From: Candidatus Omnitrophota bacterium | GTDB taxonomy: Bacteria; Omnitrophota; Gorgyraeia; Gygaellales; Profunditerraquicolaceae | Reading direction: 5' to 3' | DNA length: 34,867 nucleotides | NCBI GenBank assembly: GCA_026387555.1 | Contig: JAPLLM010000003.1 | Coordinates: forward strand, 1,935 to 36,801 | Shown: piece by piece, positions 18,001 through 30,071 of the stretch | Position numbering within the stretch: the first letter of the stretch is position 1 | Layout: each line of letters starts with the position of its first letter | Program-made: the position numbers and the translations under genes | Notes under the pieces: model-generated | Databases searched by the model: none | The model's input: only the letters and a program-made list of their open reading frames with translations | Told to the model about the DNA's origin: nothing

Positions 18001-19419
18001 CCTAAATTGAATTGTCAATTGTTCTAGCTTTTCGGCAGGTACTCGCTCTCGCAGTTCATCTAGGATATTCTTTACTCGCCGAATAAATAAAGCAGTTTCG
18101 TGAATATTCTTTTGACCAAATACATATGCCACATGAACACTCGGAATTGGACCCAATAGATAATAACGCAAGTTCGCAAACACATAGTCTAAGTGCTGGC
18201 TACCTTTTAATGCGTAAAATGTCTCAACAGTGGCAGCATCTACAGAAAGACGAATCCAATTAATTGTCTTCTGCCAACTTCCTCCCGGGATCACCAGCCC
18301 ATTAGTGAAAAGTTTCAACTTTACAGAAGGCATGAGTTTTCGCAACCTCCAAACTAAATCATTAAAACGGTGAGAACCATCGCGGTAGATTGTTGGTTCA
18401 CCGCCACCAATCAAATCAATTGTTCGCGGTGATAAAGCTGCGAGACGGGGTAAGGCAGTAAAAGGAAAGTTGGAATGCTTATGTTGATATGGACAGTAAG
18501 AACAGGCTAAGTTACAATTATAGGTTGGACAAAAAGATAATTGGCTGAATCGGTTCCAAACAACAGGTTCGGTAGATAATAACTTAGCTCTAATCAATGG
18601 CAAGTGCCCTAAGAGGTAATTCGAGTTGCGTTCATGCTGAATAGCCGGCACTGCTTGGTCTGGATTTATTACAGCTTGCAATGCGCATGTGCTAACCCGA
18701 AATGCTGCAATACTATCGATTTCTTGAATTAAATTTGCCAATTCTTCTTTTGCTTGCTTCGAATCCAGAATTGTTTTCTCAAAAAGATGACTAAACGTTG
18801 TACCTTCCAACCCATCAACAGGCAAATCCAAATTATCCTTAACATTTAGATTCAAAGGAACAAATGCCAATTTCTTCTGGTTATTCTTGAGGAAAAGGGT
18901 TATTTGGAATGTATTATTCCTGAACTTTATACCTTGATTACTGATGATTTGATATGCGAATCCTCCTTTACCGTCACCATCTAAATGACCATAAATGCGG
19001 CTATTAGATATTAGGTTTCCATCTGGAATAGAAACAATACTACCTGGCTCAGCAACGATATCTAAAATCGTATTATCGATAATAACGTCATCGCCCAATA
19101 CCAACTCCACTCCTTCAGGCACCCGTATTATCGAGTGGTGAATCAAATATTGACTTTTTGCTTTAACTCGTCCTCGTATATCTGAAGCTATACATGCTTG
19201 GTCAGCAATGCCAAAAATATGGCGTAGCCGGCTAGACAAAAACCTTAACTGCGCATCTTGTTGTGGCAATAAATTTCGATAGAAATCATAGATATCTTTT
19301 GGTGAATTGAAGTGTGTAACAGGAGCGGCTGTTGTGATAAGCTGTGGGGCGACTTGTTGGCGAAATTCCTGTGAGATCTCCCACGTACGCTGCCACTTTT
19401 CTAACGAAGAATCCCTGCA
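1..19419 (-). CDS. Giant ORF C (>=6,423 codons in window, 3' end outside window; not in the supplied ORF track): membrane-tethered multi-enzyme protein
   Basis: The phase with codon first bases at coordinates divisible by 3 corresponds to + strand triplets read from each 60-nt line start. I codon-checked about 90 of the 324 lines explicitly: 1-1260 contiguous plus lines spread over 2101-19440. A continuous read-through translation of the rest met no tta/cta/tca in phase below the TAG at 19420-19422. None of the four minus-strand track ORFs in 1..19477 lies in this phase, as expected if the phase has no stop, since the track lists only stop-bounded ORFs. The translation is protein-like throughout, with many enzyme motifs. 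The first standard start in phase is TTG at 19269 and has no SD. The window ends mid-codon-string (...GQGLNVEGLTAEGWKI at 1-60). Confidence 0.85.
208..300 (-). repeat. Junction element copy 13 (ORF C)
   Basis: NSTSTHAFLILPGFEPVFTLAIGLGMVVTTL, translated from 181-300. The LGMV codons (caccaccatcccca, 217-230) resemble those of copies 9 and 10. Confidence 0.6.
360..1230 (-). other. NadD-like (cytidylyltransferase-fold) nucleotidyl/adenylyltransferase module with an insertion
   Basis: FRIGVYPVAANPFTWMHLIAGLAAIAEYKLDKIIYVIAGSDPRKASSLLADHPRHIMAQKV (1021-1210; cf. NadD iG.fGG.F.P.H.GH...a..a.....d.v..vp...pP.K...a....R..M). ETNIFRILN...IEAFYMVGRDHYNRW follows. After about 130 aa comes IIGMPFEVAATTIRQAFAGK...ILPYTAYCCCANGDFYG (370-500; cf. 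iSST.IR..l..g....lp..V..YI...glY). Confidence 0.5.
1650..2700 (-). other. UDPGP-family uridylyltransferase-like module 2 (more divergent)
   Basis: YVYAKPNAGLGSRWAVLGSEDIAKGTGIVP (2521-2640), DFPFLTLTSFSTDGEV, VKSDFTPAGHFGLIQSLITS (2221-2280) and KKHIYATSNIDNLVAFPEPVLMAMF (2101-2190). The motif order and spacing match module 1. Confidence 0.55.
4519..4602 (-). repeat. Junction element copy 12 (ORF C)
   Basis: SSTFAALFIPGLELMLLPLAVGLALVKY, translated from 4501-4620. Confidence 0.5.
4800..5520 (-). other. HD-superfamily phosphohydrolase module, HD-GYP-like but with degenerate GYP region
   Basis: NKAHNRRVSEYVSLLGREMRLKEELIDMVTRVAKVHDIGGIHIPLTEGGSFKAERE (5281-5460; HD codons at 5338-5343; cf. 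H..RV..y...la...AA.LHDIGKI.IP). Later comes ITNHFCYPEDPTEF (4921-4980), where HD-GYP proteins have HHE..DG.GYP, and LIFCDVWENGNNAERLMALRRIPY. Confidence 0.5.
5518..5637 (-). repeat. Junction element copy 11 (ORF C)
   Basis: NFRKTHSPVAHAFDFTTALLVGQMFDPISSAIMLAVGIV, translated from 5521-5640. Confidence 0.5.
7090..8420 (-). other. Second NTP-transferase-like module with coiled-coil insertion and C-terminal beta-helix
   Basis: GGFWFDVGNPKSYILTADFVATH (7321-7380 verified; cf. G.W.DvGt...Y). Then FQPSKVILENTDDVFLNRVAIKAGENSHVFIGRRVKLSNVNIELPDNTILI (7100-7260), which is beta-helix-like. A heptad-rich stretch EYKRLKQELEALKAEALHAGAEGKAALAEQIK lies upstream (about 7600-7700). The N-terminal limit is uncertain. 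Confidence 0.4.
10000..11130 (-). other. UDPGP-family (eukaryotic-type UTP-glucose-1-phosphate uridylyltransferase-like) module 1
   Basis: LLNGGLASRFGGTVKALFVIIDNWLNAARTFIDVKLGHIFAIGKRIPVYIANSYSTHDRV (10861-11040), FCPGGHFEAIPWLVLEGKLG (10681-10740) and QMVKDGTLYVSVSNIDNLGATIDPGLIGIL (10600-10680). Compare the UGPase motifs LNGGLGTSMG, PPGHGD and FVSNIDNLGATVD (from memory). Confidence 0.7.
12502..12606 (-). repeat. Junction element copy 10 (ORF C)
   Basis: GAAVLSCLSLGAVAAVSPELAAGVALVALGMVAEG, translated from 12481-12660. Confidence 0.6.
12700..13090 (-). other. Pol-beta-superfamily (minimal) nucleotidyltransferase module
   Basis: LRRLKYSGVPPPKAILFKGSFLTVENASDIDFVIILNSAE translated from 12961-13080. 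This is the hG[GS]-x9-13-D-h-D-h signature (GS...SDID). Confidence 0.55.
13200..13740 (-). other. Module containing an HExxH motif (HEILH); zinc-metallopeptidase-like?
   Basis: ...DRLVLVASDASTEVVCHEILHDVTKLSSQ translated from 13441-13500. HEILH = 13465-13479. No third ligand recognised. Confidence 0.25.
13795..13890 (-). repeat. Junction element copy 9 (ORF C)
   Basis: GSPVTLCAAPILFSADPLLGLGCLALGMVALN, translated from 13741-13920. The 17-nt string gccaccatccccagcgc (13802-13818) is identical to 12509-12525. Confidence 0.6.
13975..14520 (-). other. Sigma-70 region 2 / region 4-like (ECF-like) helix-turn-helix segment embedded in ORF C
   Basis: Translated codon by codon from 13981-14520. The r2-like segment is RRHYYWFNEPTCLLHQLLLAKIEKEVDSSLRNYDGIRPFRSYWYKYLRFAVIRSYVKERR (cf. 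ECF r2 ..f....F..Wl..Ia.N...d..R). The r4-like segment is LTEEVVKMLVNLVKQNNGVGEIPLEIFSQRLRGFGFKEIAMERGLNSTSWPLMACRKVCDRIQE (cf. r4 LP...r.vf.L....G.s..EIA...g.s..tVk.rl.RA...L). Confidence 0.35.
15961..16062 (-). repeat. Junction element copy 8 (ORF C)
   Basis: DDAKPNNAVMGMAVFGVPDVLLFAITVFGMLQIG, translated from 15961-16080. The NAVMGM codons share a 15-nt identity with copy 4. Confidence 0.7.
16792..16929 (-). repeat. Junction element copy 7 (ORF C), full form
   Basis: AGAAVATRTTNEARPNTTFALCLTGELIIAFSAVGLMAVWALLCYM, translated from 16741-16940. Confidence 0.7.
16945..17330 (-). other. Small (~130 aa) module ending in an HExxH motif (HENLH)
   Basis: ...LLSHHFSAAQAKEVISFIYEHENLHAEFPACNEE translated from 16921-17040. 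HENLH = 16975-16989. It sits between two junction elements. Confidence 0.25.
17362..17454 (-). repeat. Junction element copy 6 (ORF C), N-terminal half only; the hydrophobic hairpin is replaced by an Ala/Pro/Gly linker
   Basis: GGAFTARITNEPDNKALFVSAAATPAADEPG, translated from 17341-17460. Confidence 0.5.
17560..18560 (-). other. Radical SAM module with SPASM/twitch-like Cys-rich C-terminal extension
   Basis: LSFCPTYNCNLACSYCPYQH translated from 18481-18540. The CX3CX2C cysteines lie at 18514-18516, 18502-18504 and 18493-18495. IDLIGGGEPTIY (18361-18420). Distal segment: HSCPYSLLMPFITSEGNIYPCCIFAIMNGPHFGNVINDSPEWLALRQSKFYRNVIPLCRLHCQ (17581-17800). Confidence 0.75.
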
Positions 19420-19979
19420 CTAACTGAAACTCCTCCTTGTCGTCCAACGTTCCAGTTATGGACATTGCCAGTTTCACTTAGGATTTGGCCCAACCGAGTA
19501 CCGATTACATTTAAGGTCTCTGTTTTTGCAGCATAAAAACCACTTAAAGGCGGATCACGTTGCCTTTCCTGTTGTTCCATACCCAATACAACCAGCTTAT
19601 TATTACCTTCTATTTGCTGCTGCAGAAGCGGTATATCATCAGGCGTAAGCCAGCAAGCCGCATCTGCCGGTAACCAAACGAACCAATGACCACTTGGTAG
19701 AACTCGAGAGAAAATCTCTGCTTGACGAGTAGTAATTTCTGTTAAACGTTTACCCAATACAACAATATCTCCTTTGGTTTCAGACGCTAATCCAAGGAGC
19801 CCCTGACGTAAAGCCCTACCCCCGGTACTTGAACAAAGCAAAATATGATGATCTTGAGAAACTATATTAGCCTGAGCGAAATGATCTTTTACTTCTCTAA
19901 GAGTAACTATACTTTCTTTGCGGTCTTCTACTGCTGCCATCACAGAATTAACAGCCTTATCGCCAGGCCCTGGTGAAAT
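18960..19979 (-). other. NTP-transferase (sugar-1-P nucleotidyltransferase / fucokinase-N-like) module plus beta-helix, split across the ORF B / ORF C boundary
   Basis: ORF B C-terminus: HILLCSSTGGRALRQ (cf. GG.G.RL), HWFVWLPADAACWLTPDDIP, KLVVLGMEQ...PLSGFYAAKTETL. ORF C N-terminus: VTHFNSPKDIYDFYRNLL (19269-19322; cf. f.H.GT..EYL / W.D.G....Y), then IHHSIIRVPEGVELVLGDDVIIDNTILDIVAEPGSIVSIPDGNLISNSRIYG (about 18985-19145, left-handed beta-helix-like). Confidence 0.4.
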
Positions 19980-22900
19980 CATCGCATATTTCCAATGCTT
20001 TTGTAGATTTTCTGTTGTAAATGTTTTCTCAAACTTAGTTCGATAATATTGTGCCAATTCCAGAGAGAATTCTTCAATTGTCAATAAGGTAAAAAGGTAA
20101 AATGGACTGTTATGTGCATTTAATAATCTTTGAGATGCCAAGTTAATATCTTCTGTCATATCTGAAAAATCAACTAAAATCCAGCATCCCGCAGATGTCA
20201 TCATTGTATCAATCAGGATATTATCCGTATCCCAGTTAAAATACCCATGTTGCCAAATTTGCTCCTGTACTCCAAATGCCTCGTCTATCAGAATCCTTCC
20301 CAGAGCCGTGTTGCCGTGCGCCACAGCCAACCGCAAAGCGCCCTCTAGGGAAATTACGCCGTATTGCTGACTAAAAGCTGGTCCGCAATATAACTTTGCC
20401 CCCCTAACTCCGCGGAATCCTGGATAAAAATGTACATCTCCTATAAGACCTTTTAATTTCTGAGCCATGGTTACAACTTCCTGCATACTAAGCGCTGGTC
20501 GGGATAGAATACGAGTAACTATATTTTCAAACGCGGTCCGGAGCGTTTTTCTTTGTTGAATCATCTTTAATATCCGGAATATCATATTGATAGAAATAAC
20601 TTTTCTTACCAAGCTCTCAATAACCTTCTTAAATAAAGAGCTGCGTATCTGAACATTGGTGTGAATAGGCGTATTTACATTTTTATTCTGAACAGTGTTA
20701 AGGTAATGACGCTTAGGAATTTTAACCACCCTACTGGGATCTCTCCAATCTAGATAGGAACCCATGTTTTTACCGTCGCGGATAAATACAAGAGGAGATG
20801 TTCCTTGCTTAATTAAATTTTGCTGTTGGCGGAATTGCCACAGAAAATTTCGTTGACGAACCAATCCCCAAACCATTCGCAAGGCCTCCCCGCAACGACT
20901 GCCTTCTCTTTGACTAATCTTAAAAATCACTGGCGCCTCTATCAATCTAGCACCAATAACATCCGCCCGACCGAGTAGATTTGTATCAAATGAGGTCCAG
21001 TAATCAAAAGCATTATCCCAAATTCCATCTATAGTAACCGGGAGGATTTTGTCAAGAATGTCACGCGAAAACGCCTTAAAAGGACACTGGGTATCTGTTA
21101 ATGCTGAAAGCCTGGGCAAACAACTACGCACAATCCAATTATAGCTATATGAACCAATATTCCGCTTTAGCCCCCGTTGTAATATCGAACCTGGGGCAAA
21201 CTTTGAAGCAACCCCAACATTATTTGATGATTCCATGGTAGGACGTAAAATAATACCCTCTAATGCCAAATCTATGGCTGGCCGAATATGACCATAAATC
21301 ACGTAGTCTGCGCCACCCTTGATAGCATGGGCCATCCCATATGTGGCACCCGGCCCAAACCTGCCTCCTAGGCGATTGCAAGTCTCCCATGGTATTTCCA
21401 AGAATTTCAACTGCCCTTTGACTGCGTACGATAAACATTCCTGCTTAATTTTATCCTGCCATAATTCTGCAGGGGTATTTCTATAACTTTCTTCATGGAC
21501 AACAATCAATTCCCATTTTACATTCGGATTAAATCCATAAAGATCCTCCAGTTGTTCAAGACGCGTTCTGAGATATTCACTGCGCGCGTGATCCTCGGGG
21601 CGAGAAAGGACCATAACTGTGCTGATTTTGGTTAACACTGCTATACGACTAACCTGACGGTATGATTCAAACAATAGTTTGGCTTCCGGTTGCTGAGAAA
21701 ATACTGTTCCTAGCATACTCAAAATGGCAACGCCGCTTTCTTTTAATGATAAAGCTAACGCCATACGTAATAAAATAAACCTTTCCCTTACGGCAAGGTT
21801 ATTACTTCTGTCTGTGCTCAAAACCGCCCGACAGAAATCAAGCAATTTATCTGATTGTTTTGTTTTAACAATCTGCTGAAGAAGGCGTTCTTGGTACTCA
21901 AAACTGTCTTTAGCAATAACCCTAACCTTATTCTCTTCACATATTTCAACAGTGGCTATTTGGAGTAGCAGCACTTGTGAACGCGTTGCCGCTTTCCATT
22001 CATCAAGCAACTTACGCTGCCGCCAAATTCGGATGAAAAACTTGAGTGATAGCCAAGGGCTGACCACAGATAATCGCGGAGAATGATGCATACAGCTGGG
22101 CACTTCCCCAACGCGATAACCGCGCACTTTAGCTCGAGAAATCCATAAGTCGCTAGATGTGTAAAAATAATCGAAACCTTTTTCAAAATCGCCCTGAGCA
22201 GATACAGGAAGAATGGTATCAATCATTTCAGGCTTTACGCCTTTAAGCGCATTATGGGTATCCAGGATATGTCCGACAGGCAGGACGGTACGGATAAAAC
22301 GGTTCAGCACTATGCTGTACCAATAATACAGCCTGCCCATATGTAATACGCGTCCCTTTACACGGTTAGAACCAATGACAAGGTCTAGAGAACCTTCCAT
22401 AAGTGGTTTTATAATATTCCCCTCCAAGCCGACATGAGTATCTAAGTCAACGTTGGTGTAAATAACAATACCTGCGCCCAACTGCACAGCTTTGCGCATA
22501 CCGTATAAAACTCCAGACCCCTGGCAACCCTGAATTTGTTCTTTTAAGCTTTGATCGACTTCAAAAACGCATATCCGGCCAGATTTTAGTTCCGCTGTGA
22601 ATTCTTTCCGCAAAATCCCGAGCATTAAATCTGTAGTTTTAAAACTATTTAATGATGATGTGTATTTGCGGTCATCGCCATCTTGTACATAAATTAGTTG
22701 CCAATCTAAAAGCGGATTAACGCTAAAAAGTTCCTGCAACTGAAGAATCTTATTACGCATGGCATCTTCAGCTCCCTCAAACTCAGATTTCTTTTGAATC
22801 GACAGTTGATGTCCATAAACCGATATAACCGTAGCGACTTTAACCGGAGTGCGTATACGATAAAAACTAAGATAAGAATTAACCATGAGCTTAGCCTCAG

Positions 22901-25900
22901 CTATCATCTGAGGCTCCATACGGCAATCCTTAATAAGTCGTTCTAAGAAATCAGCTACAGTAGCAGCGTCTTTCCGTTTCAGAACGGCTGAACAGACTGT
23001 GGCGATTAATTGCAATCTTTCATTAGCAGGTAGAATAACGTTGATACTTTTATCGCGGTATAGAGGTAGCCCCAGAATGTCTCTCAACAAGACAAATACA
23101 TCTTCTTGCTTGGCGTCCTGAAAGATATTTCGCAATTTTTCTTGGCGTAGTAATTCATCTCGGATAGTCAATATTGTTACCAGCGGACTAGTTAAGGGTA
23201 CTGAAGACCTGACGCATGTTATGCCAACTGCAACTAATACCAATACACTGGAAATAAAGTAGGGGTCAACAAAGGGTAATATCGATAAAACATTGTTGCT
23301 ACTTCTATTCTCTGTATTCGCTCGTACCGCCGCGCCGACAGCTTTCTGAAATTTAAGAAGAACACCATTAATTGACAATTTTAACTTTTCAGTTGAACCG
23401 TTATTGTCGATTACTTGATTCGACATGCTCAAAAATTTTCGCTCAGAAGGAAATCCGGGGTTCTTGGCAAATCTCTTCTCTGCTAACTGTTTAGTCATGC
23501 CAAATTTACTAAATCTTGCTAACACGGTTTCCTTGCGTGCCGTTTCATTTCTACGTATATACCAAACCTCATCCCACAACGAGCTCAAGCCAAGTATATG
23601 GTTAAAAGCACAATCGACAATAATTAATCGGTTCCCCTGAACAAGTGCGCCTCGAATCTCCTCTAATACAATCTTTGCTATCGCAGGAATAAATATGCGT
23701 CTGAACTTTCTGTCTATGCGCATCACCAATATTTGCTTACCACCGATACCGCTTACTACTTCAGAGCACTGCTTAAAGGCAGAGCGCATTATTTCACGAT
23801 ATCTTGGGTTTTTGGGGAATTCGTGTTCGGTGTCAATTACGCGATAATTTAACGAAACCAGATAACTTGCTACTGTGGACTTTCCGCTTGCCGGATATCC
23901 CATCAATGCGATAATTTTTGCGCCTTTTTTATTTTTTAAAGCCAATAATTCTTTCATTTCACTAGACTGGGAATTACTGGTTACAAATGTCTTTATCCAT
24001 AATGCCACCGCGCCAACAGCTATACCTACAATCATTACTGCAGTCATAAGAAAATCGCCCAACACCATTCCCATCACCGCATTGCCTGACTTACCGTCAT
24101 TCTTCACCACGGTCGCCGCCGCGCCGGTATTCTTAAGCATAAATGGCTGCTCTCCCAACGCAATACCAAGCTCCCTATCTTCCTTAAGTTTCTCTAAGAT
24201 TGTGTTTACGATTTGTTCATGAATCAAGCACTTTATCCCGCAAGTTTTACAGATTTCCGGATCGTGCTTAATTTCTTTGCTTCTTTCTAATACTGCTTCT
24301 ACCGAGGCTTGCGAAAAATCTCCGACCTCAAAGTCTCCACGCCATGCATTCAAGGGATGCTCAAGGTAATCGCATAAAAATCCTACCCCAAAAGGATTGA
24401 CCACCATTTTGGACATCCGGATTTGGCAGGTCTTTGCCCTCGGCATACCGGTCAGGAATTTCTCATCGCCTCTTAAATCGTTCTCGGTCATTCCTCTCAA
24501 ATCTAAGCCCATCTTCATTTGTTTATTATAATTATATTTACCGCTCCGGGCATTCTCCTGCATAATAACAATCTGTCGCAAAATCTCTGCAATCTCCACT
24601 GGATTAAATGACCTGACAATCGCGCCCATATCAACTCTCACGGCAAGAAAATCGACGCCTAAATTATATGCCCAATCCGCGGCTTTCAGGATATCCCGAT
24701 AATTAGATGGTTCGGGGATCACTAAGTAAGTCAGACCGATTTCGACTTTAAAACCCGTTTCCCTCTTCCTCGTTACCAGTTCTCTGATATTGTTTTCTAC
24801 CCTCTTAAAGTTAAATTCTGGTTTAATTGGCCGGTGGACACTGCGGAACATTTCTTCGCCAATTGCAGATATACTAAATCTTACCCATCCGCTTTCTAAA
24901 GCAACTTCACGTGCCCGGCCAGCCAGAAGCTGACCGTTGGTGTATAATTTAGTACGCAGGCCCAGCCTGTTTGCTTCATCTAATATATGCCAGGCAATAT
25001 CTGTAGTAAGCGGCTCCAATCCCCCGGAAACCCAAATTTGTTCTGTCCCGCCCTTAGCAAATTCCCTGACCAGCTCTCTGGCTTTTTCGGCGGTCAAAGG
25101 TTTTCTGCCATTCCTGCTATCTTGATAACGGAAAGGACAATCTTTGTTGTGGTTGGTATAACAATATACGCATTTATAGGGACACCATGTGCCCGGATGA
25201 AACTCTGCAAGAAGTGGATAGACAACGGTTTTCTCATCAAAAATCCCCTCTAAACTCTTGCAGTGCTGCAACTGGAATTCGATCTCCCCTGCCACGCCGG
25301 CAAATTCGCTGTTATTGATCAACATCTGATGCAGCCCAGACACAGAGCGCAACATTCTATACGCCCGCAATAACTCACTGACTGAAAGATTGTTTCTTCT
25401 GCAGATCTCTTCGCTCTTGGCAACCGGAACCAATAATAAGGAACTAAGAACAGCGGCGGTATTCTTCAAATCTGGGGCTGAAATCTCATTACCTGATTTC
25501 GTAATCAGGCCTTCCAGGATCGGCGCAGCTTTTTCCGGGTCATTTTTCAGGAGTCCGGCGAGGTCACTGAGCGCCTGCGGCCCTTCAAATAAGAACTTTC
25601 TCTTGGTTGGATTAAACGGTCCTTCCGCAATAACTAGGACACGATTAGGGGAGGTATTCAGGAAGCGAAAACGATGTGCGGAAAAATTAATGGCCTTATC
25701 CCCTGCTTTCAATGAAACCGTGTACCGTTCCTTGGCGTGCTTATCCGCGAATACTGCCTCGCACTCGCCTTCTAAAAGCATGACCATATCCAACAACGGA
25801 CGCTCATCAGACCCTGCTTTATCCCAACTTAAGGAATTAACGGGTGGCTCTAAATGCAGGTACTCACCTTCACCGGATCTATCCTGCGGAGTCTTTAAGC

Positions 25901-28900
25901 CTGCGCCTAATGGGTTAGAAGGAACAAGGATGGGTTTCATCGCCTTATACTTCGGGTCATTCTGCCATAAATTGCTAGGGATAGCCGCAATTAACTCGCC
26001 GCCTTCTCTTATTACGTTAATATCATTAAGTAAGTCGAGTTTTTCTGCCAAGGTTTGCGCTTTTTTATCGATTATTCTATTTTTGCTGGCAAAAATCGTA
26101 AAGACAGCACCCACGCTTGACGCTTGCAGGGTATACGGAACGTACAAAGCCGCAATTCTTCCTTTCTCCAACGAAACCTTCTTGCCGGCAAACGTCAGCT
26201 CAACATCCCCATTTTCAATAACTATAATATTTTCAATACTATCTTCTTTCTGTTGATAGCATTCTCCTTGCCTGCTGAACGCTCTCGTTGAAATTGTGAT
26301 TGTCTGGCCGACTTCGTCGAATGATGCGACACTGCCTGACCTCATAATGATAGCAAGACGATCCCCTCTGCTATTCCGTACTTCCTCCATTATTCCCAGT
26401 GCAAAAATTCCTAACCCAGCTAAAAGTATATCTGCAGCCGGTTCGCCGGTAGAAATGAAAGGAATAACGAGGCCCATTGTCGCATTGCTTGACTTAGCTT
26501 TATTTGTTGCCCTGGCCGTCACCGCTACGCCGAACTTCTTCGCAATAACCGTAACCAGTTCCCCTCTTCCTCCAGCCTCTATTTGTTTTTTATTTTGGAT
26601 TACGCGTTGGAAATCTGCATCCGAAATCAGGCCATGTTCATGCTCTACGGCAACCCAGCGTTCATTAAATTTAGTTTCCAAATGCACTATCTCAAATCCG
26701 CTTTTCTCAAAAAGCATTCTTAATGTTTTCGGAGAGAAGTAATAGAAGTGGCCTATTTTAATATCGGAAAATTCCCTACCCTGGATTCTTCCTACTTCGC
26801 TATCCAAATTAGGCAATCTGGTTATGTACAACAGTCCACCATCCTTTAAAACCCGGCGCGACTCAGCTAATTCTGCGCTTGGGGCCAAAAGATGCTCTAA
26901 TGTTGCAAAATAACCCAATAAATCCAGCGAATTGCTTTCAAAGTTACGTTGGTGCAATGTTCCGTGAAAGGCCTTAAGGCCGTCCCGTGTTAACAATCCT
27001 ACCGCTTCCCTTGAAGTATCAATGCCTTCAACATCGAAGCCAAGTTTAGCTGCAGCTTTAAGATGATGTCCAGGGAAACCGCAACCGACATCCGCCATTT
27101 TCACTTTTTTGACATCGCCTAAATAGCGAGAAATAAATTCTATCTCCTGTGCTGCAGCGGCTTCCCTTTCAGGGCTAAGTTGATAGAAACCAGGCTCCCA
27201 TTCTATAACCCTAGGATTACGCACATAAACCAAGCCACAATTCCCGCACCTTACGATTATATCCTTTCTATCCGCCCGATAGCCATGTCCCGGAATCTTT
27301 ATTTTTCCGAGAGGAATATTCTCATCCTTTGCCAGAATTATCGGACCTACCCTAAATAATTCTATCTGCCTACCAGACCCACAAAGATTACAACATGTAA
27401 TTTCCGCTTCCGCCGAAACCTGCGGTTGCCCTACTTCTCTGAGCCCGTTAGCGATTAAATCCGGAGTTATGTTTTTGAATTCTTCGTTTTTGATTAAAAC
27501 AGTGTACCCGCTCATTTCCGGCACTCCCCAGCCATTAGTATAGAAACTATCAGGTGCCCTTTTCACGCGCGGATAGATAAATACAACAAACTCTCCGGAC
27601 GGCATTTTCTTCAATAAGATATCCAGCATATCCGGCTTAAAGCCCATCCGGATAAACTCTTCTACTTTATTTCTGGTAAGCGCCTTTACCTCTTGGCTCA
27701 CTTTGCCTCTAAGTAGTGTGTTATCCACCGGCCAGGATGGCACTCTACCTATACTCACCGCTCCCCTTTGCTCTTTAACTTCTACGGGTTGAGCTTCAAT
27801 GCTAAACCTATTCAGGCAACCTTGGAAATGGAAATGTTCTGGGATACTTCTGGCGGGACCGTTAAGGAACAGGCTTACTCCCGGAGCTTCAGCCACGAAA
27901 TCAAAAGCAACATTTAATACCTCTTCATCCCCCACAGTCTTGGTTTCTTCCCCGGTATGCCTTTTTGCCGCTAAGACAAAGCCGTGTTCCCTTGTCCAAG
28001 TAAAAGGATTTATAAGAATCCTATAATCACGCCAAGAGAATCCTCTCTGAGCCAGCGGCATAAATTGCGGGCACAGGTTACACCTCGTCCCACTCTCCCC
28101 GCCTATCTCTTTTATATCCAAAGCCAGACGCTTGATTAATAGTGGGAGGATATATATCCCATATTTTCTGGTGTATGTTAATGGGTGTAAGAGCATATCG
28201 GCGGCATTCTTTGGCTCTGCTGATAAACTTACTCCTTGTTGATAATGTTTGGGGTCGCGGTGGGCACAATAAGCCGCCTCAAACGGATCTACCTTCTTTG
28301 TCTCTATCCCCTTTATTCTGGCATCGACAAATCCCACTTTGCGCTGCTGCCAAGAAATGGCCTTGATTATATCCGTCATAGTGTATACTCTCAACCAGCG
28401 CAAGGATAATAACAGTAATCCTGCTGTAAAAGGATCAAAAGCACCAGAAATTTTATGATGCCACGCTACCTGTTCGGGTGCATATTTTAGATAGTTTTTC
28501 AGCACTAAGATTGTTGCTAATACTATAACTACTGCTAGTATCGCTGTACCAGGGAAGGAAATTAATGAATTGCAATTTACATCTGTGGATGGTTTATTTT
28601 CTGATGCAGGTTTTGTTGCGGGACTAGACTGTACATTCGGCGGCGCCTGCGACTGCTGCTGACTGGCTAACTCCCTAATTTTCTGTTGAGCGTTTTCGGG
28701 GGTAAAAGAAGAGACAAAAAGTATGGAATTAGTAAGATCCAAAGAATGGAAATAATAATTTATTGTTCGACCGGTAGTTAGAGGTTCGAATGCCGTATAA
28801 GAATCAGGACAAATTTCACTTTCGCTTTTTTCTAAACCATCTTCTTTTTCTCTGGCAAGATCTAAGCTTAAACTTATCACAATACTAGCCAATATGGGAT

Positions 28901-30071
28901 CTTCTATTGTTCTTATTATTGGAGGTACTACTCTTCTAATAAACTCGCGGTGAATATGATGTCTACTATAAATATCTCTCCAGTTGATAGATGCAGTTTT
29001 GCTGACCCATAAATTTTCGCTTGCTTCTAATATTTGGATGTGGGAGGCGAATCTGGCTAGATTTCCTCCCGCTAACTCTGATGCCAAAGGAACACCTACC
29101 TCAATGATGTCGCAAGGGGGCATGTTATTACGCGCCAATCTTATTCCCATTTCCATGGCGAGATTAAATTCTTCGGCGCTTTGAATTCCCCTTACCATGC
29201 GAGGGATGGAGTTTAAAAGAGCGTAATAAATAGGCTTATTTTCTGATTCTAGTACTGATAATAAAACCTTAGTGCTAGCGAAATTAATATCATATCTCTG
29301 TGTACTCCTTAAGGCGATTATATGCTTTGGAATTACCGAGATTAGACAAACGACATTAGGTAACCTGTATCGTAAGAACTCTACTATTGTCTTATAAATA
29401 GGTAACCCACTGCTTTTTGCATCTATAAACTTATAAATAACATAACCAACTATCATCGCTATCGCGAGAGAAACAAACCATGTGAAAACATGAATAGATG
29501 ATACCTCGATCGGTAACAAAACTGCTAAGTTGGGAGATTTAGCCGCAGGCTGCGCTGACTCAGGCTTCTTGGGTTCTTCCAGCTTGGCCGCAACAACTTC
29601 TGCTGGCTTTACAGTTACCGGAGTTTTCAGCGCTTTGCGGCGCGAGGCTTTATATCCAAACCAACCAGCACCAGTCAAAAATAGCGCCCCTATTCCTGCT
29701 AATATCCCGTACTTTAGCTTTTTGTTAATGCTTGTCTGTCCTGCTTGCGGCTGTTGGCTTGCCTTGAGGGCCACTGTTTGGGAAGCAGAAGAAGGCGCAA
29801 CCGGTGGCCCTACGGTTGGCTTGGCCGCAGGAACCTGCGCTTGCTTTTTCTCTTTTTTCTCTACTTCTTTAGGCAACCTTACATTAGCCATTCCTGCATC
29901 GGCTTCCATAGCACCCAACTCATTGTGCATAGAAGCTAGGTCATTTACCGCATCAGCGAGTTTTCTCGTAGAAGTTTCAAACTCATAATTAAGAGTGCCT
30001 ATTTTCTGATGGGTAAATTCTTCGACTTGAACACGCGCTGCTGCACGGTCCCTACCCACATAGATAGACAA
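19401..30071 (-). CDS. Giant ORF B (3,556 aa): membrane-tethered multi-enzyme protein (HIT-type nucleotidyltransferase, methyltransferase, radical SAM, kinase, 2x GT2 and others)
   Basis: Track ORF. TTG start at 30069-30071. An in-phase TGA at 30078-30080 excludes a longer N-terminus. Stop TAG at 19401-19403 (mRNA ...GCA GGG ATT CTT CGT TAG). It overlaps the end of ORF A by 20 nt. My residue count (3,556) agrees with the track, so aa-to-nt conversions below use codon high coordinate = 30071-3(i-1). Confidence 0.9.
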   Translation of the reverse strand: MSIYVGRDRAAARVQVEEFTHQKIGTLNYEFETSTRKLADAVNDLASMHNELGAMEADAGMANVRLPKEVEKKEKKQAQVPAAKPTVGPPVAPSSASQTVALKASQQPQAGQTSINKKLKYGILAGIGALFLTGAGWFGYKASRRKALKTPVTVKPAEVVAAKLEEPKKPESAQPAAKSPNLAVLLPIEVSSIHVFTWFVSLAIAMIVGYVIYKFIDAKSSGLPIYKTIVEFLRYRLPNVVCLISVIPKHIIALRSTQRYDINFASTKVLLSVLESENKPIYYALLNSIPRMVRGIQSAEEFNLAMEMGIRLARNNMPPCDIIEVGVPLASELAGGNLARFASHIQILEASENLWVSKTASINWRDIYSRHHIHREFIRRVVPPIIRTIEDPILASIVISLSLDLAREKEDGLEKSESEICPDSYTAFEPLTTGRTINYYFHSLDLTNSILFVSSFTPENAQQKIRELASQQQSQAPPNVQSSPATKPASENKPSTDVNCNSLISFPGTAILAVVIVLATILVLKNYLKYAPEQVAWHHKISGAFDPFTAGLLLLSLRWLRVYTMTDIIKAISWQQRKVGFVDARIKGIETKKVDPFEAAYCAHRDPKHYQQGVSLSAEPKNAADMLLHPLTYTRKYGIYILPLLIKRLALDIKEIGGESGTRCNLCPQFMPLAQRGFSWRDYRILINPFTWTREHGFVLAAKRHTGEETKTVGDEEVLNVAFDFVAEAPGVSLFLNGPARSIPEHFHFQGCLNRFSIEAQPVEVKEQRGAVSIGRVPSWPVDNTLLRGKVSQEVKALTRNKVEEFIRMGFKPDMLDILLKKMPSGEFVVFIYPRVKRAPDSFYTNGWGVPEMSGYTVLIKNEEFKNITPDLIANGLREVGQPQVSAEAEITCCNLCGSGRQIELFRVGPIILAKDENIPLGKIKIPGHGYRADRKDIIVRCGNCGLVYVRNPRVIEWEPGFYQLSPEREAAAAQEIEFISRYLGDVKKVKMADVGCGFPGHHLKAAAKLGFDVEGIDTSREAVGLLTRDGLKAFHGTLHQRNFESNSLDLLGYFATLEHLLAPSAELAESRRVLKDGGLLYITRLPNLDSEVGRIQGREFSDIKIGHFYYFSPKTLRMLFEKSGFEIVHLETKFNERWVAVEHEHGLISDADFQRVIQNKKQIEAGGRGELVTVIAKKFGVAVTARATNKAKSSNATMGLVIPFISTGEPAADILLAGLGIFALGIMEEVRNSRGDRLAIIMRSGSVASFDEVGQTITISTRAFSRQGECYQQKEDSIENIIVIENGDVELTFAGKKVSLEKGRIAALYVPYTLQASSVGAVFTIFASKNRIIDKKAQTLAEKLDLLNDINVIREGGELIAAIPSNLWQNDPKYKAMKPILVPSNPLGAGLKTPQDRSGEGEYLHLEPPVNSLSWDKAGSDERPLLDMVMLLEGECEAVFADKHAKERYTVSLKAGDKAINFSAHRFRFLNTSPNRVLVIAEGPFNPTKRKFLFEGPQALSDLAGLLKNDPEKAAPILEGLITKSGNEISAPDLKNTAAVLSSLLLVPVAKSEEICRRNNLSVSELLRAYRMLRSVSGLHQMLINNSEFAGVAGEIEFQLQHCKSLEGIFDEKTVVYPLLAEFHPGTWCPYKCVYCYTNHNKDCPFRYQDSRNGRKPLTAEKARELVREFAKGGTEQIWVSGGLEPLTTDIAWHILDEANRLGLRTKLYTNGQLLAGRAREVALESGWVRFSISAIGEEMFRSVHRPIKPEFNFKRVENNIRELVTRKRETGFKVEIGLTYLVIPEPSNYRDILKAADWAYNLGVDFLAVRVDMGAIVRSFNPVEIAEILRQIVIMQENARSGKYNYNKQMKMGLDLRGMTENDLRGDEKFLTGMPRAKTCQIRMSKMVVNPFGVGFLCDYLEHPLNAWRGDFEVGDFSQASVEAVLERSKEIKHDPEICKTCGIKCLIHEQIVNTILEKLKEDRELGIALGEQPFMLKNTGAAATVVKNDGKSGNAVMGMVLGDFLMTAVMIVGIAVGAVALWIKTFVTSNSQSSEMKELLALKNKKGAKIIALMGYPASGKSTVASYLVSLNYRVIDTEHEFPKNPRYREIMRSAFKQCSEVVSGIGGKQILVMRIDRKFRRIFIPAIAKIVLEEIRGALVQGNRLIIVDCAFNHILGLSSLWDEVWYIRRNETARKETVLARFSKFGMTKQLAEKRFAKNPGFPSERKFLSMSNQVIDNNGSTEKLKLSINGVLLKFQKAVGAAVRANTENRSSNNVLSILPFVDPYFISSVLVLVAVGITCVRSSVPLTSPLVTILTIRDELLRQEKLRNIFQDAKQEDVFVLLRDILGLPLYRDKSINVILPANERLQLIATVCSAVLKRKDAATVADFLERLIKDCRMEPQMIAEAKLMVNSYLSFYRIRTPVKVATVISVYGHQLSIQKKSEFEGAEDAMRNKILQLQELFSVNPLLDWQLIYVQDGDDRKYTSSLNSFKTTDLMLGILRKEFTAELKSGRICVFEVDQSLKEQIQGCQGSGVLYGMRKAVQLGAGIVIYTNVDLDTHVGLEGNIIKPLMEGSLDLVIGSNRVKGRVLHMGRLYYWYSIVLNRFIRTVLPVGHILDTHNALKGVKPEMIDTILPVSAQGDFEKGFDYFYTSSDLWISRAKVRGYRVGEVPSCMHHSPRLSVVSPWLSLKFFIRIWRQRKLLDEWKAATRSQVLLLQIATVEICEENKVRVIAKDSFEYQERLLQQIVKTKQSDKLLDFCRAVLSTDRSNNLAVRERFILLRMALALSLKESGVAILSMLGTVFSQQPEAKLLFESYRQVSRIAVLTKISTVMVLSRPEDHARSEYLRTRLEQLEDLYGFNPNVKWELIVVHEESYRNTPAELWQDKIKQECLSYAVKGQLKFLEIPWETCNRLGGRFGPGATYGMAHAIKGGADYVIYGHIRPAIDLALEGIILRPTMESSNNVGVASKFAPGSILQRGLKRNIGSYSYNWIVRSCLPRLSALTDTQCPFKAFSRDILDKILPVTIDGIWDNAFDYWTSFDTNLLGRADVIGARLIEAPVIFKISQREGSRCGEALRMVWGLVRQRNFLWQFRQQQNLIKQGTSPLVFIRDGKNMGSYLDWRDPSRVVKIPKRHYLNTVQNKNVNTPIHTNVQIRSSLFKKVIESLVRKVISINMIFRILKMIQQRKTLRTAFENIVTRILSRPALSMQEVVTMAQKLKGLIGDVHFYPGFRGVRGAKLYCGPAFSQQYGVISLEGALRLAVAHGNTALGRILIDEAFGVQEQIWQHGYFNWDTDNILIDTMMTSAGCWILVDFSDMTEDINLASQRLLNAHNSPFYLFTLLTIEEFSLELAQYYRTKFEKTFTTENLQKHWKYAMISPGPGDKAVNSVMAAVEDRKESIVTLREVKDHFAQANIVSQDHHILLCSSTGGRALRQGLLGLASETKGDIVVLGKRLTEITTRQAEIFSRVLPSGHWFVWLPADAACWLTPDDIPLLQQQIEGNNKLVVLGMEQQERQRDPPLSGFYAAKTETLNVIGTRLGQILSETGNVHNWNVGRQGGVSVSAGILR
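19430..19438 (-). promoter_or_regulatory. Strong internal Shine-Dalgarno-like AAGGAGGAG just upstream of the B stop / C frame opening
   Basis: The + strand ctcctcctt at 19430-19438 gives mRNA CAAGGAGGAGTTTCAGTTAGTGCAGGGATTCTTCGTTAGAAAAGTGG. No ATG/GTG/TTG in the ORF C phase follows within 150 nt, so its role (start site, frameshift stimulator, or chance Gly-Gly codons) is unresolved. Confidence 0.3.
20037..20804 (-). other. Protein-kinase-like / small-molecule kinase-like fold (tentative)
   Basis: aa ~3090-3345: SPLVFIRDGKNMGSYLDWRDPSRVVKIPKR near the start. WQHGYFNWDTDNILID...GCWILVDFSDM resembles the H.D....NIL ... iDF catalytic/activation segments of APH/choline/Kdo kinases, but the spacing is not canonical. 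Confidence 0.25.
20832..21638 (-). other. GT2 glycosyltransferase module 2 (dolichyl/polyprenyl-phosphate hexose synthase-like)
   Basis: aa ~2812-3080: ISTVMVLSR..., LIVVHEESYRNTP, GPGATYGMAHAIKGGADYVIYGHIRPAIDL (DxD position degenerate), LTDTQCPFKAFSRDIL (DTQCPFKAF = 21069-21095, canonical), FDYWTSFDTNLLGRADVIGARLIEAPV. Confidence 0.65.
22017..22850 (-). other. GT2 glycosyltransferase module 1 (dolichyl/polyprenyl-phosphate hexose synthase-like)
   Basis: aa ~2408-2685: VATVISVYG..., LIYVQDGDDRKYT, GSGVLYGMRKAVQLGAGIVIYTNVDLDT (DxD present), ILDTHNALKGV (22239-22262, degenerate form of DTQCGFK), FDYFYTSSDLWISRAKVRGYRVGEVP. Confidence 0.6.
23211..23342 (-). repeat. Junction element copy 5 (ORF B aa 2244-2287), full form
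   Basis: AVGAAVRANTENRSSNNVLSILPFVDPYFISSVLVLVAVGITCV. Confidence 0.7.
23352..23939 (-). other. P-loop NTPase kinase module (dephospho-CoA kinase / nucleoside-kinase-like)
   Basis: Walker A IIALMGYPASGKSTVASYL (GYPASGKST verified at 23874-23900). Walker-B-like LIIVDCAF. Lid-like RRNETARKETVLAR. Confidence 0.6.
23982..24131 (-). repeat. Junction element copy 4 (ORF B aa 1981-2030), full form
   Basis: NTGAAATVVKNDGKSGNAVMGMVLGDFLMTAVMIVGIAVGAVALWIKTFV. The 15-nt string cccatcaccgcattg (24070-24084) is identical to 16031-16045. Confidence 0.7.
24177..25238 (-). other. Radical SAM module (CX3CX2C) with C-terminal Cys-rich tail
   Basis: HPGTWCPYKCVYCYTNH. The three Cys codons were verified on the DNA at 25182-25184, 25170-25172 and 25161-25163. 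GGE-type SAM motif IWVSGGLEPL. Distal cysteines: C1882, C1900 and CKTCGIKC (aa 1941-1948). Confidence 0.75.
25572..26366 (-). other. Two cupin-like beta-barrel segments (tentative bicupin; sugar isomerase/epimerase-like?)
   Basis: aa ~1236-1500: IVIENGDVELTFAGKKVSLEKGRIAALYVPYTLQASSVGAVFTIF and MVMLLEGECEAVFADKHAKERYTVSLKAGDKAINFSAHRFRFLNTSPNRVLVI. Both follow the cupin G-x-hydrophobic...l.aGD...ip pattern. No metal-ligand motif recognised. Confidence 0.3.
26382..26531 (-). repeat. Junction element copy 3 (ORF B aa 1181-1230), full form
   Basis: GVAVTARATNKAKSSNATMGLVIPFISTGEPAADILLAGLGIFALGIMEE. Confidence 0.7.
26667..27149 (-). other. Class I SAM-dependent methyltransferase module
   Basis: Motif I KMADVGCGFPGHH (VGCGFPG = 27069-27089). 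An acidic residue ends beta-2 (FDVEGIDTS). Motif III-like region RVLKDGGLLYI. Confidence 0.65.
27234..27401 (-). other. Four-Cys zinc-ribbon-like segment preceding the methyltransferase
   Basis: aa 891-946: ITCCNLCGSG ...(about 40 aa)... RCGNCGLVY. Two CxxC pairs. Confidence 0.4.
27492..28106 (-). other. HIT-superfamily nucleotidyltransferase/phosphorylase module, GalT / GDP-hexose-phosphorylase branch (HxHxQ)
   Basis: aa ~656-860: TRCNLCPQF (CxxC), then FSWRDYRILINPFTWTREHGFVLAAKRH...GVSLFLNGPARSIPEHFHFQG. HFHFQ verified on the DNA at 27822-27836. This pattern (N.P...H..l, then N..gA..S..H.H.Q) is the GalT/Apa2/GDP-L-galactose-phosphorylase signature as I recall it. Confidence 0.5.
28491..28589 (-). 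repeat. Junction element copy 2 (ORF B aa 495-527)
   Basis: STDVNCNSLISFPGTAILAVVIVLATILVLKNY. Confidence 0.45.
29430..29540 (-). repeat. Junction element copy 1 (ORF B aa 178-214)
   Basis: KSPNLAVLLPIEVSSIHVFTWFVSLAIAMIVGYVIY. Fits N-x-x-[VM]-L-[LI]-P-x-[DE] plus hydrophobic helix. Confidence 0.45.

Follow-up and report, generated by a model that had tools for sequence, protein, structure and literature searches.

The stretch of DNA analysed here, referred to below as the window, comprises 34,867 nucleotides of a Candidatus Omnitrophota genome (GCA_026387555.1, contig JAPLLM010000003.1, positions 1,935 to 36,801), an assembly of 1.04 Mb in 135 contigs that is 74% complete. It is filled by three very long open frames, all on the minus strand: 30052-34866 (more than 1604 aa, with an open 5' end), 19401-30071, and 1-19269 (more than 6423 aa). 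The middle frame, open reading frame (ORF) B, encodes 3556 aa and was recognized from the ORF list, Pfam matches and a hydrophobicity scan as a multi-module, membrane-anchored protein. Pfam and NCBIfam assign to it DUF4922 (HIT-like), class I S-adenosylmethionine (SAM) methyltransferase, radical SAM, and P-loop kinase-like domains, and six hydrophobic segments were found in a Kyte-Doolittle scan. ORF B thus has what characterizes a giant multi-enzyme protein, namely great length, many hydrophobic segments, and several different enzyme domains. The subject of this work is the radical SAM module in the middle of ORF B, which is probably a complete enzyme unit with a DesII-like predicted fold and a second cluster site, and which is likely to serve in sugar tailoring.

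Extent and identity of the radical SAM unit

Homologue alignments, together with an AlphaFold2 (AF2) model of high predicted local distance difference test score (pLDDT 90.2), delimited the complete unit to aa ~1535-1985 of ORF B (24117-25469, minus strand). The span proposed in the original prediction, 24177-25238 (aa 1612-1965), contains the core but is too short, as it lacks an N-terminal helical domain of ~75 aa and, at the C-terminus, ~20 conserved residues. When 1.84 billion representative proteins were searched exhaustively with HMMER, 1511 matches passed E≤1e-3, of which 247 also passed E≤1e-10, and dozens of the matches align to residues 2-445 of the 451-aa query, which correspond to aa 1540-1990 of ORF B. 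When ORF B was compared by blastp with all the long matches, the common part was limited to aa ~1535-1985. The closest giant protein (P0005, 6706 aa) is 65% identical over the module, and elsewhere it is unalignable to ORF B. Because homologues align over, and the giant proteins share, only this part, the unit can be set at about 450 aa, and to judge from the alignments it acts like a mobile cassette, set into long proteins that are otherwise unrelated.

The unit opens with a six-helix, DesII-like domain at aa 1540-1611 (25239-25454, minus strand), recognized from the AF2 helices (2-8, 14-20, 25-37, 39-48, 52-62, and 65-72 in the numbering of P0002) and from a profile alignment to the N-terminal domain of DesII starting at residue 58. 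The radical SAM core, a partial TIM barrel supported by PF04055 and by Foldseek, follows at aa 1612-1875 (24447-25238, minus strand). The C-terminal Twitch-like domain occupies aa 1876-1985 (24117-24446, minus strand), as indicated by alignment, the AF2 model, and SPASM matches in relatives, and it contains a beta-hairpin (aa 1888-1898), helices, and the conserved tail K1961/D1965/G1969/Q1975-P1976.

The absence of a radical SAM profile match had been named beforehand as one of two findings that would speak against the original prediction, and neither was obtained. The PF04055 match covers aa 1626-1786; it scores 50.9 bits when all of ORF B is searched and 56.3 bits for the excised piece, above the gathering score of 29.5. 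The two motifs that had been located about 1,630 aa into ORF B are found there, within aa 1630-1687. The CX3CX2C motif CPYKCVYC (aa 1630-1637; 25161-25184, minus strand) supplies C1630, C1634, and C1637, the predicted ligands of the SAM-binding [4Fe-4S] cluster. This is the single CX3CX2C in the whole of ORF B, where ~0.008 would be expected from the cysteine content, and its three cysteines, whose conservation was the other point at stake, do not vary in any homologue covering the site. GGLEP (aa 1683-1687; 25011-25025, minus strand) represents the 'GGE' SAM-binding motif (G1683, G1684, E1686); it aligns to G187-E190 of DesII and is invariant in the family. Moreover, the module retains all 12 invariant and 16 of the 17 nearly invariant family positions, with Y1742F as the exception. 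On sequence and model grounds, aa ~1535-1985 are therefore probably a complete and active radical SAM enzyme unit.

Two studies, with four freshwater or lake metagenome runs between them, yielded contigs in which the sequence across both borders of the module is identical and free of joints, insertions, and deletions. The embedding of the module in ORF B is therefore not an assembly chimera.

Predicted fold and relation to DesII

The AF2 model was obtained with a 34-sequence alignment and reached a predicted template modelling score (pTM) of 0.90 in addition to the pLDDT given above; a single-sequence model (pLDDT 43) was unusable and was set aside. The predicted chain passes from six N-terminal helices through an alternating strand/helix core to a beta-hairpin followed by helices. 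The structural check suggested in the original prediction thus gave a model that has the strand/helix core of a partial TIM barrel at this pLDDT, with four cysteines in a Twitch-like placement. In a Foldseek search against the PDB, chains of DesII came out on top (E 2e-18, template modelling (TM) score 0.67-0.71, ~460 columns with 462 in the best case, 18-19% identity), followed at TM 0.41-0.51 by SuiB (0.50), SkfB, PqqE, viperins, BlsE, and MoaA. All fold matches were radical SAM enzymes. DesII was also the best PDB match by sequence (8HZV), with E 1.5e-10 for the single sequence and E 7.7e-40 for the family profile over profile positions 22-402, an alignment that takes in the N-terminal domain. 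DesII consists of six N-terminal helices, the radical SAM core, and a C-terminal hairpin with helices (PMC11434129).

The closest NCBIfam model, TIGR04426 (DesII), gave 52-56 bits against a cut-off of 450 bits, and the prokaryotic viperin, MoaA, and NirJ-type models that came after it matched the core only. None of the 34 family members reached any curated NCBIfam cut-off, the best of them having E 7e-26 against TIGR04426, and the family is therefore without a curated model in NCBIfam. Assignment to viperin was rejected, as NF038283 scored 42-46 bits against a cut-off of 180 bits, over the core only, and the TM score was 0.41 versus 0.69 for DesII. The MoaA, NirJ, and PqqE readings were discarded because of model scores under the cut-offs and a fold match weaker than that to DesII.

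According to the model and the profile alignments, the module has the DesII fold, and the sequence comparison indicates that it is not a DesII orthologue. E408, proposed as the general base of DesII (PMC11434129), aligns with Y1902, two residues past C1900, in a column that is variable in the family; this correspondence comes from the alignment only.

Predicted auxiliary cluster site

Conservation was assessed in an alignment of 52 full-length homologues of 24-65% identity. Four cysteines in the C-terminal domain, each 96% conserved, are predicted from it to be ligands of an auxiliary cluster: C1882 (24426-24428), C1900 (24372-24374), C1941 (24249-24251), and C1948 (24228-24230), all on the minus strand. 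G1895 is conserved to the same degree. C1882 is the first cysteine of a C-x12-G-x4-C element, which is followed after ~40 residues by a CX2C pair, and the spacing of the pair can be written as C-x2(6)-C. CKTCGIKC, present in the window and in a few relatives, is this CX2C widened by a four-residue insert; C1941 is its first cysteine and C1948 its last. The middle one, C1944 (24240-24242, minus strand), lies in the insert and is not conserved, its column being a gap in 85% of rows and cysteine in 4%. The original prediction had taken the extra cysteines, those of CKTCGIKC among others, for auxiliary-cluster ligands. Four such cysteines are indeed conserved, but CKTCGIKC, with its three cysteines, contributes two of them.

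All four cysteines are present in 62 of 67 alignment rows, and they are jointly absent in P0030, in its sister L011, in P0081, and in DesII. This all-or-none pattern of loss is what is expected if the four residues act together. In the AF2 model, strands at aa 1888-1891 and 1896-1898 precede the helices, so that C1882 is placed ahead of the hairpin, C1900 behind it, and C1941 and C1948 after a helix. The Twitch domain is described as a hairpin followed by a helix, with cysteines on either side of the hairpin, and the first element of SPASM as CX9-15GX4C (PMC6231123), a pattern that C1882-x12-G1895-x4-C1900 fits. Relatives of the module matched the SPASM profile PF13186 with 20.0 (L004), 17.1 (L012), 27.7 (L015), and 33.6 bits (L016), the cut-off being 21.5. 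The module holds no further conserved cysteines, that is, no Aux II set. Taken together, alignment and model suggest that the module probably has a Twitch-type, four-cysteine site for a second [4Fe-4S] cluster and is a two-cluster enzyme.

Relatives, gene context, and phylogeny

A profile search of the contigs found one copy of the family in the window's genome. Among 301 genomes of the same phylum, full-profile matches occur in about a dozen, all within open frames of 1233-12,493 aa; open frames of 12,000-33,000 aa are also present in genomes of this phylum. Many free-standing matches of ~355 aa among the 301 genomes are without the N-terminal domain and form a shorter, related family. The modules that flank the unit vary among the giant proteins and include cytidylyltransferase-like (CTP_transf_like), B12-binding, Gfo/Idh/MocA, DUF218, APH-type kinase, and PNP_UDP domains; next to the shorter subfamily lie DegT, amidohydrolase, NUDIX, and phosphoglucose isomerase (PGI). 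One member of the shorter subfamily, encoded on the minus strand at L015:655-4044 in a genome of the same class (G107), has a DegT/DnrJ/EryC1 aminotransferase (256 bits) fused to radical SAM and SPASM domains. This fusion is a covalent form of the aminotransferase/radical SAM pairing that Chloroflexota have as adjacent genes.

A genome of the same family as that of the window (G227) encodes, on the minus strand at L008:2-3523, a cytidylyltransferase-like domain, the DesII-like unit, and, directly after it, a B12-binding domain. The latter hints at a tandem with a second radical SAM module, of class B.

A locus search with a six-sequence alignment recovered free-standing full-length members from five Chloroflexota/Dehalococcoidia metagenome-assembled genomes; in L025, for instance, the orthologue is located at 9959-11293 and the adjoining DegT gene at 11360-12478. 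Their gene order is Gfo/Idh/MocA, hexapeptide acetyltransferase, DegT, nucleoside diphosphate (NDP)-sugar 4,6-dehydratase (in L026), two family 4 glycosyltransferases (GT4), radical SAM, DegT, and Wzy_C. The adjacency of the radical SAM and DegT genes is kept in all five loci, including L023, where no other gene of the cluster is recognisably conserved, and the pair in L026 has a four-base overlap. In the maximum-likelihood tree, the window's module groups with P0005 in a clade (support 98) whose eight rows are all multi-domain. Its sister (support 100) is the clade holding the free-standing Chloroflexota genes, in which five proteins are direct fusions of radical SAM with Gfo/Idh/MocA. P0021 is an example of a protein fused in this way. 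The embedded and free-standing states switch many times on the tree.

A different setting was observed at L032 (NCBI GCA_023818655.1, JAMWCI010000051.1, 1-4808), where the genes upstream of the 1785-aa relative P0007 comprise several response-regulator receivers in a row, a fragment of a histidine-kinase ATPase, a PP-binding carrier protein, and a cupin. This locus is unlike the Chloroflexota glycan clusters.

Neighbouring modules and the remainder of the window

Immediately after the unit and outside it, the Kyte-Doolittle scan places a hydrophobic junction at aa 1997-2032 (23976-24083, minus strand), which is absent after the equivalent module in L005, L007, L008, L009, L011, and L013. It is followed by a P-loop nucleoside/nucleotide-kinase-like module at aa ~2039-2231 (23379-23957, minus strand; NF006743 at E 1.5e-8, with TIGR00152 and PF01121 (CoaE) weak). 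The junction and kinase of the original prediction are thus both real, but the kinase-like matches lie only under curated cut-offs. The upstream region at 25467-26378 (aa 1232-1535), which had been called bicupin-like, gave no Pfam match at E≤0.05 and no meaningful PDB sequence match, and it was left unassigned. P0006 and P0005, which are close relatives, conserve aa ~1280-1535 of it beside their radical SAM unit, and this stretch may be a functional partner of the unit.

Other hydrophobic junctions of ORF B, on the minus strand, lie at 26379-26489 (aa 1195-1231), 23187-23291 (aa 2261-2295), 28479-28580 (aa 498-531), and 29418-29528 (aa 182-218). The five junctions, of 34-37 aa each, share one layout, in which a polar linker leads to a short hydrophobic stretch interrupted by P, G, or D and then to a helix of ~20 aa; at three of them (aa ~1195, ~1997, and ~2261) the linker ends in S-(S/G)-N.

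In the frame 1-19269 (minus strand), two UTP-glucose-1-phosphate uridylyltransferase (UDPGP) domains are the only Pfam matches at E≤0.001, and the upstream 1604-aa frame has none. Nearly all of the giant-frame sequence lies outside the reach of Pfam. No DegT or Gfo/Idh/MocA Pfam match was found in the three frames (ORF A, B, and C).

A second radical SAM-like module was observed in the next frame downstream, at 17401-18699 (minus strand), with PF04055 at 19.3 bits and SPASM at 19.5 bits, both under the cut-offs. It is not recovered at E≤1e-5 with the ORF B module's family profile; by sequence it is much more divergent and is not a paralogue of the ORF B radical SAM module.

Discussion

The reading that is likely to be correct is that the module belongs to an uncharacterised family combining the DesII fold with a Twitch site, and that it is a sugar-tailoring radical SAM enzyme unit, yielding a keto-sugar, within a membrane-anchored multi-enzyme protein. 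Nucleotide-sugar or glycan chemistry had been put forward in the original prediction, and it is now supported by DesII as the closest solved relative, by the DegT-adjacent, O-antigen-like clusters, and by the Gfo/Idh/MocA fusions. C-methylation, which had been listed among the options, found no support, as the module is without B12 or methyltransferase features. According to the proposed mechanism, the CX3CX2C cluster would cleave SAM reductively to give a 5'-deoxyadenosyl radical, which would remove a hydrogen at a carbinol carbon in a nucleotide-activated sugar or in one closely related to it. The substrate radical would then be converted to a keto-sugar, and the favoured route is one-electron oxidation via the auxiliary cluster, as in a BtrN-type dehydrogenase; the alternative would be elimination of water or ammonia, in accordance with the AprD4 and DesII logic. 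The keto-sugar may be handed to a partner, either an aminotransferase or an NAD(P)H reductase. Three features favour dehydrogenation: the predicted site for a fully ligated auxiliary cluster is conserved, the general base of DesII is missing, and the recurring partners are aminotransferases or NAD(P)-oxidoreductases. As for the type of reaction, a dehydrogenase is put first by analogy and is only a tentative choice, a dehydratase or deaminase is a possible candidate on which some doubt rests, a reaction of some other kind is rather unlikely, and an epimerase is improbable. The companions of the unit in ORF B (DUF4922, the methyltransferase, and the kinase-like module), along with UDPGP in the next frame, suggest that the unit would supply a modified sugar, and as one catalytic station of the polypeptide it may do so for a surface or storage glycan.

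A more far-reaching interpretation, which is considered improbable, is that the three frames form a covalently linked, membrane-tethered glycan assembly line, in which the module acts in cis on an intermediate passed between stations. These stations would comprise a sugar phosphorylase/nucleotidyltransferase, a methyltransferase, the radical SAM unit, a kinase, a glycosyltransferase, and a glucan synthase, and the radical oxidation or deoxygenation would take place on a lipid-linked or nascent polymer sugar and not on a free NDP-sugar. If true, this would be a radical SAM step inside a carbohydrate megasynthase. A further consequence, likewise conditional, would be that the cluster-bearing family is the ancestral form and that DesII lost the second cluster.

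Several observations weigh against the proposed sugar-tailoring, two-cluster unit. In the window's clade (P0005, P0007-P0010, P0014), no recognisable DegT or Gfo/Idh/MocA partner adjoins the module, and a DegT search of the window's genome, at its 74% completeness, gave only weak DegT-like matches, on other contigs. Identity to the Chloroflexota enzymes that provide the gene context is ~30%, and the function may therefore have diverged. The module itself has no match to PF13186 (SPASM) at E≤0.1, and in RNA runs from the same lake samples none of the stretch was present. Moreover, if the junctions are single-pass, successive modules (methyltransferase, radical SAM, kinase, and those downstream) would come to lie on alternating sides of the membrane, which is a topological paradox because all these modules need cytoplasmic cofactors. 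The paradox suggests that the junctions are hairpin or re-entrant anchors, or processing sites.

The explanation closest to the proposed one is that the module is a true DesII-type lyase, carrying out the redox-neutral radical deamination of an NDP-4-amino-4,6-dideoxyhexose to a 3-keto sugar, with a DegT-type aminotransferase supplying its substrate. No characterised enzyme is closer to the module in sequence and fold than DesII, and the free-standing relatives, which have one DegT gene directly downstream as well as another DegT gene and an NDP-sugar 4,6-dehydratase in the cluster, match the DesI/DesII/DesV logic. However, the score of 56 bits is low against the 450-bit equivalog cut-off, which all 34 family members miss by far, and the residue aligned with E408, Y1902, is not conserved in the family. 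In addition, DesII has one cluster and none of the four auxiliary cysteines, and a redox-neutral lyase needs no fully ligated auxiliary cluster. A strict DesII reaction is thus improbable.

Two other possibilities are given very little credence. The matches of the second tier, by fold and by profile, are maturases of peptides that are made on the ribosome and modified after translation (RiPPs), namely SuiB, SkfB, and PqqE, and the polar S-(S/G)-N linker recurs ahead of three junctions. The module could accordingly be seen as a peptide-modifying SPASM/Twitch maturase, active on a small peptide or, in an anSME-like manner, in cis on Ser/Gly/Asn-rich linkers. The N-terminal domain, however, is all-helical as in DesII and not a beta-sheet RiPP recognition element (RRE), the TM score is 0.69 to DesII versus 0.50 to SuiB, the free-standing orthologues belong to glycan clusters in which neither a giant protein nor a peptide gene occurs, and several giant proteins have the module without a nearby junction. 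It is equally hard to believe that the module is a decayed, non-catalytic remnant serving as a structural spacer in a fast-evolving giant gene. Such a state would agree with the high divergence reported for giant-protein domains (bioRxiv 10.1101/2023.11.21.568195), with the scores of the adjoining modules under curated cut-offs, and with the lack of expression evidence in the lake RNA runs. Against it, the seven cluster cysteines, the GGE motif, and the 12 of 12 invariant and 16 of 17 nearly invariant positions are intact, and AF2 predicts the fold confidently. Moreover, identity to the nearest giant protein is 65% over the module alone, the rest being unalignable, which indicates selection on the unit.

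The occurrence of a radical SAM domain deep inside a giant protein is not new. Radical_SAM ranks within the top 20 domains by frequency in giant proteins from Omnitrophota (bioRxiv 10.1101/2023.11.21.568195) and was counted 90 times in the sugar-metabolism co-occurrence module of such giants (bioRxiv 10.64898/2026.06.07.730766), so that PF04055 had already been catalogued in both surveys. The rarity of embedded radical SAM modules that the original prediction implied does not agree with this. A full-text search of the literature found no description of a cluster-bearing DesII-like family. The present results define an uncharacterised radical SAM family in which the DesII fold is predicted to be joined to a BtrN-like auxiliary site. 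Three independent lines tie this family to sugar tailoring, namely the DegT neighbourhood, the Gfo/Idh/MocA fusions, and co-residence with nucleotide-sugar enzymes in giant proteins. A concrete and testable function is thereby proposed for a domain that is unstudied although it ranks with the commonest in giant proteins of ultra-small bacteria, and the free-standing Chloroflexota orthologues, together with the adjacent aminotransferase, constitute a tractable system for finding the reaction.

Comparison with known systems

Of the characterised enzymes, DesII (TDP-4-amino-4,6-dideoxy-D-glucose deaminase of Streptomyces venezuelae; PDB 8HZV/8HZY; TIGR04426) shares with the module the same three-domain architecture, aligned GGE, ribose, and beta6 SAM-binding motifs, and, at the level of the family, an association with DegT-type sugar aminotransferases. 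The differences concern the second cluster, as DesII has a single cluster and carries Met and Tyr in the first two auxiliary cysteine columns and no cysteine in the last two, whereas four conserved cysteines are found in the module's family. Furthermore, DesII has G, Y, and R at the positions of the family invariants E1623, H1625, and N1790, the identity is limited to 18-19%, and the module, unlike DesII, sits in a 3556-aa polypeptide.

With regard to the auxiliary site, the nearest parallel is BtrN (2-deoxy-scyllo-inosamine dehydrogenase, PDB 4M7T), whose Twitch domain fully ligates one [4Fe-4S] cluster, the likely electron acceptor in a two-electron oxidation (PMC9012708). BtrN and the module have in common a four-cysteine Twitch arrangement, with one cysteine before the hairpin, one after it, and two following a helix. 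The sugar-like substrate and the DegT-family aminotransferase partner of BtrN also agree with the reading proposed for the module. Unlike the module, BtrN has ~250 aa and is without the N-terminal helical domain. It showed no sequence similarity in the PDB profile search at E≤1e-5 and was outside the top 50 fold matches. BtrN is therefore an analogue of the module, useful as a mechanistic model for two-electron oxidation to a ketone, and not a member of its family.

The AprD4/AprD3 pair of aminoglycoside C3' deoxygenation, in which AprD4, a diol dehydratase of the radical SAM type, works with the NADPH-dependent reductase AprD3 (PMC5461906), is likened to the family by reaction logic and not by sequence. 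The passing of a keto-sugar to an NAD(P)H oxidoreductase parallels the fusions of radical SAM with Gfo/Idh/MocA in the sister clade and in L011, although the window's module is without a fused oxidoreductase.

Summarizing, ORF B resembles the giant 'multi-enzyme' proteins of Omnitrophota and the Archaeovorins, in which a very long ORF tiles divergent metabolic domains among many hydrophobic segments. The surveys of these proteins give the Pfam domain only, and the subfamily, the DesII fold, the auxiliary site, and the context of the free-standing relatives are not described there. The module is new, but its kind is known, a probable Twitch-type sugar-tailoring radical SAM unit in a known type of giant-protein host, and its novelty is modest.

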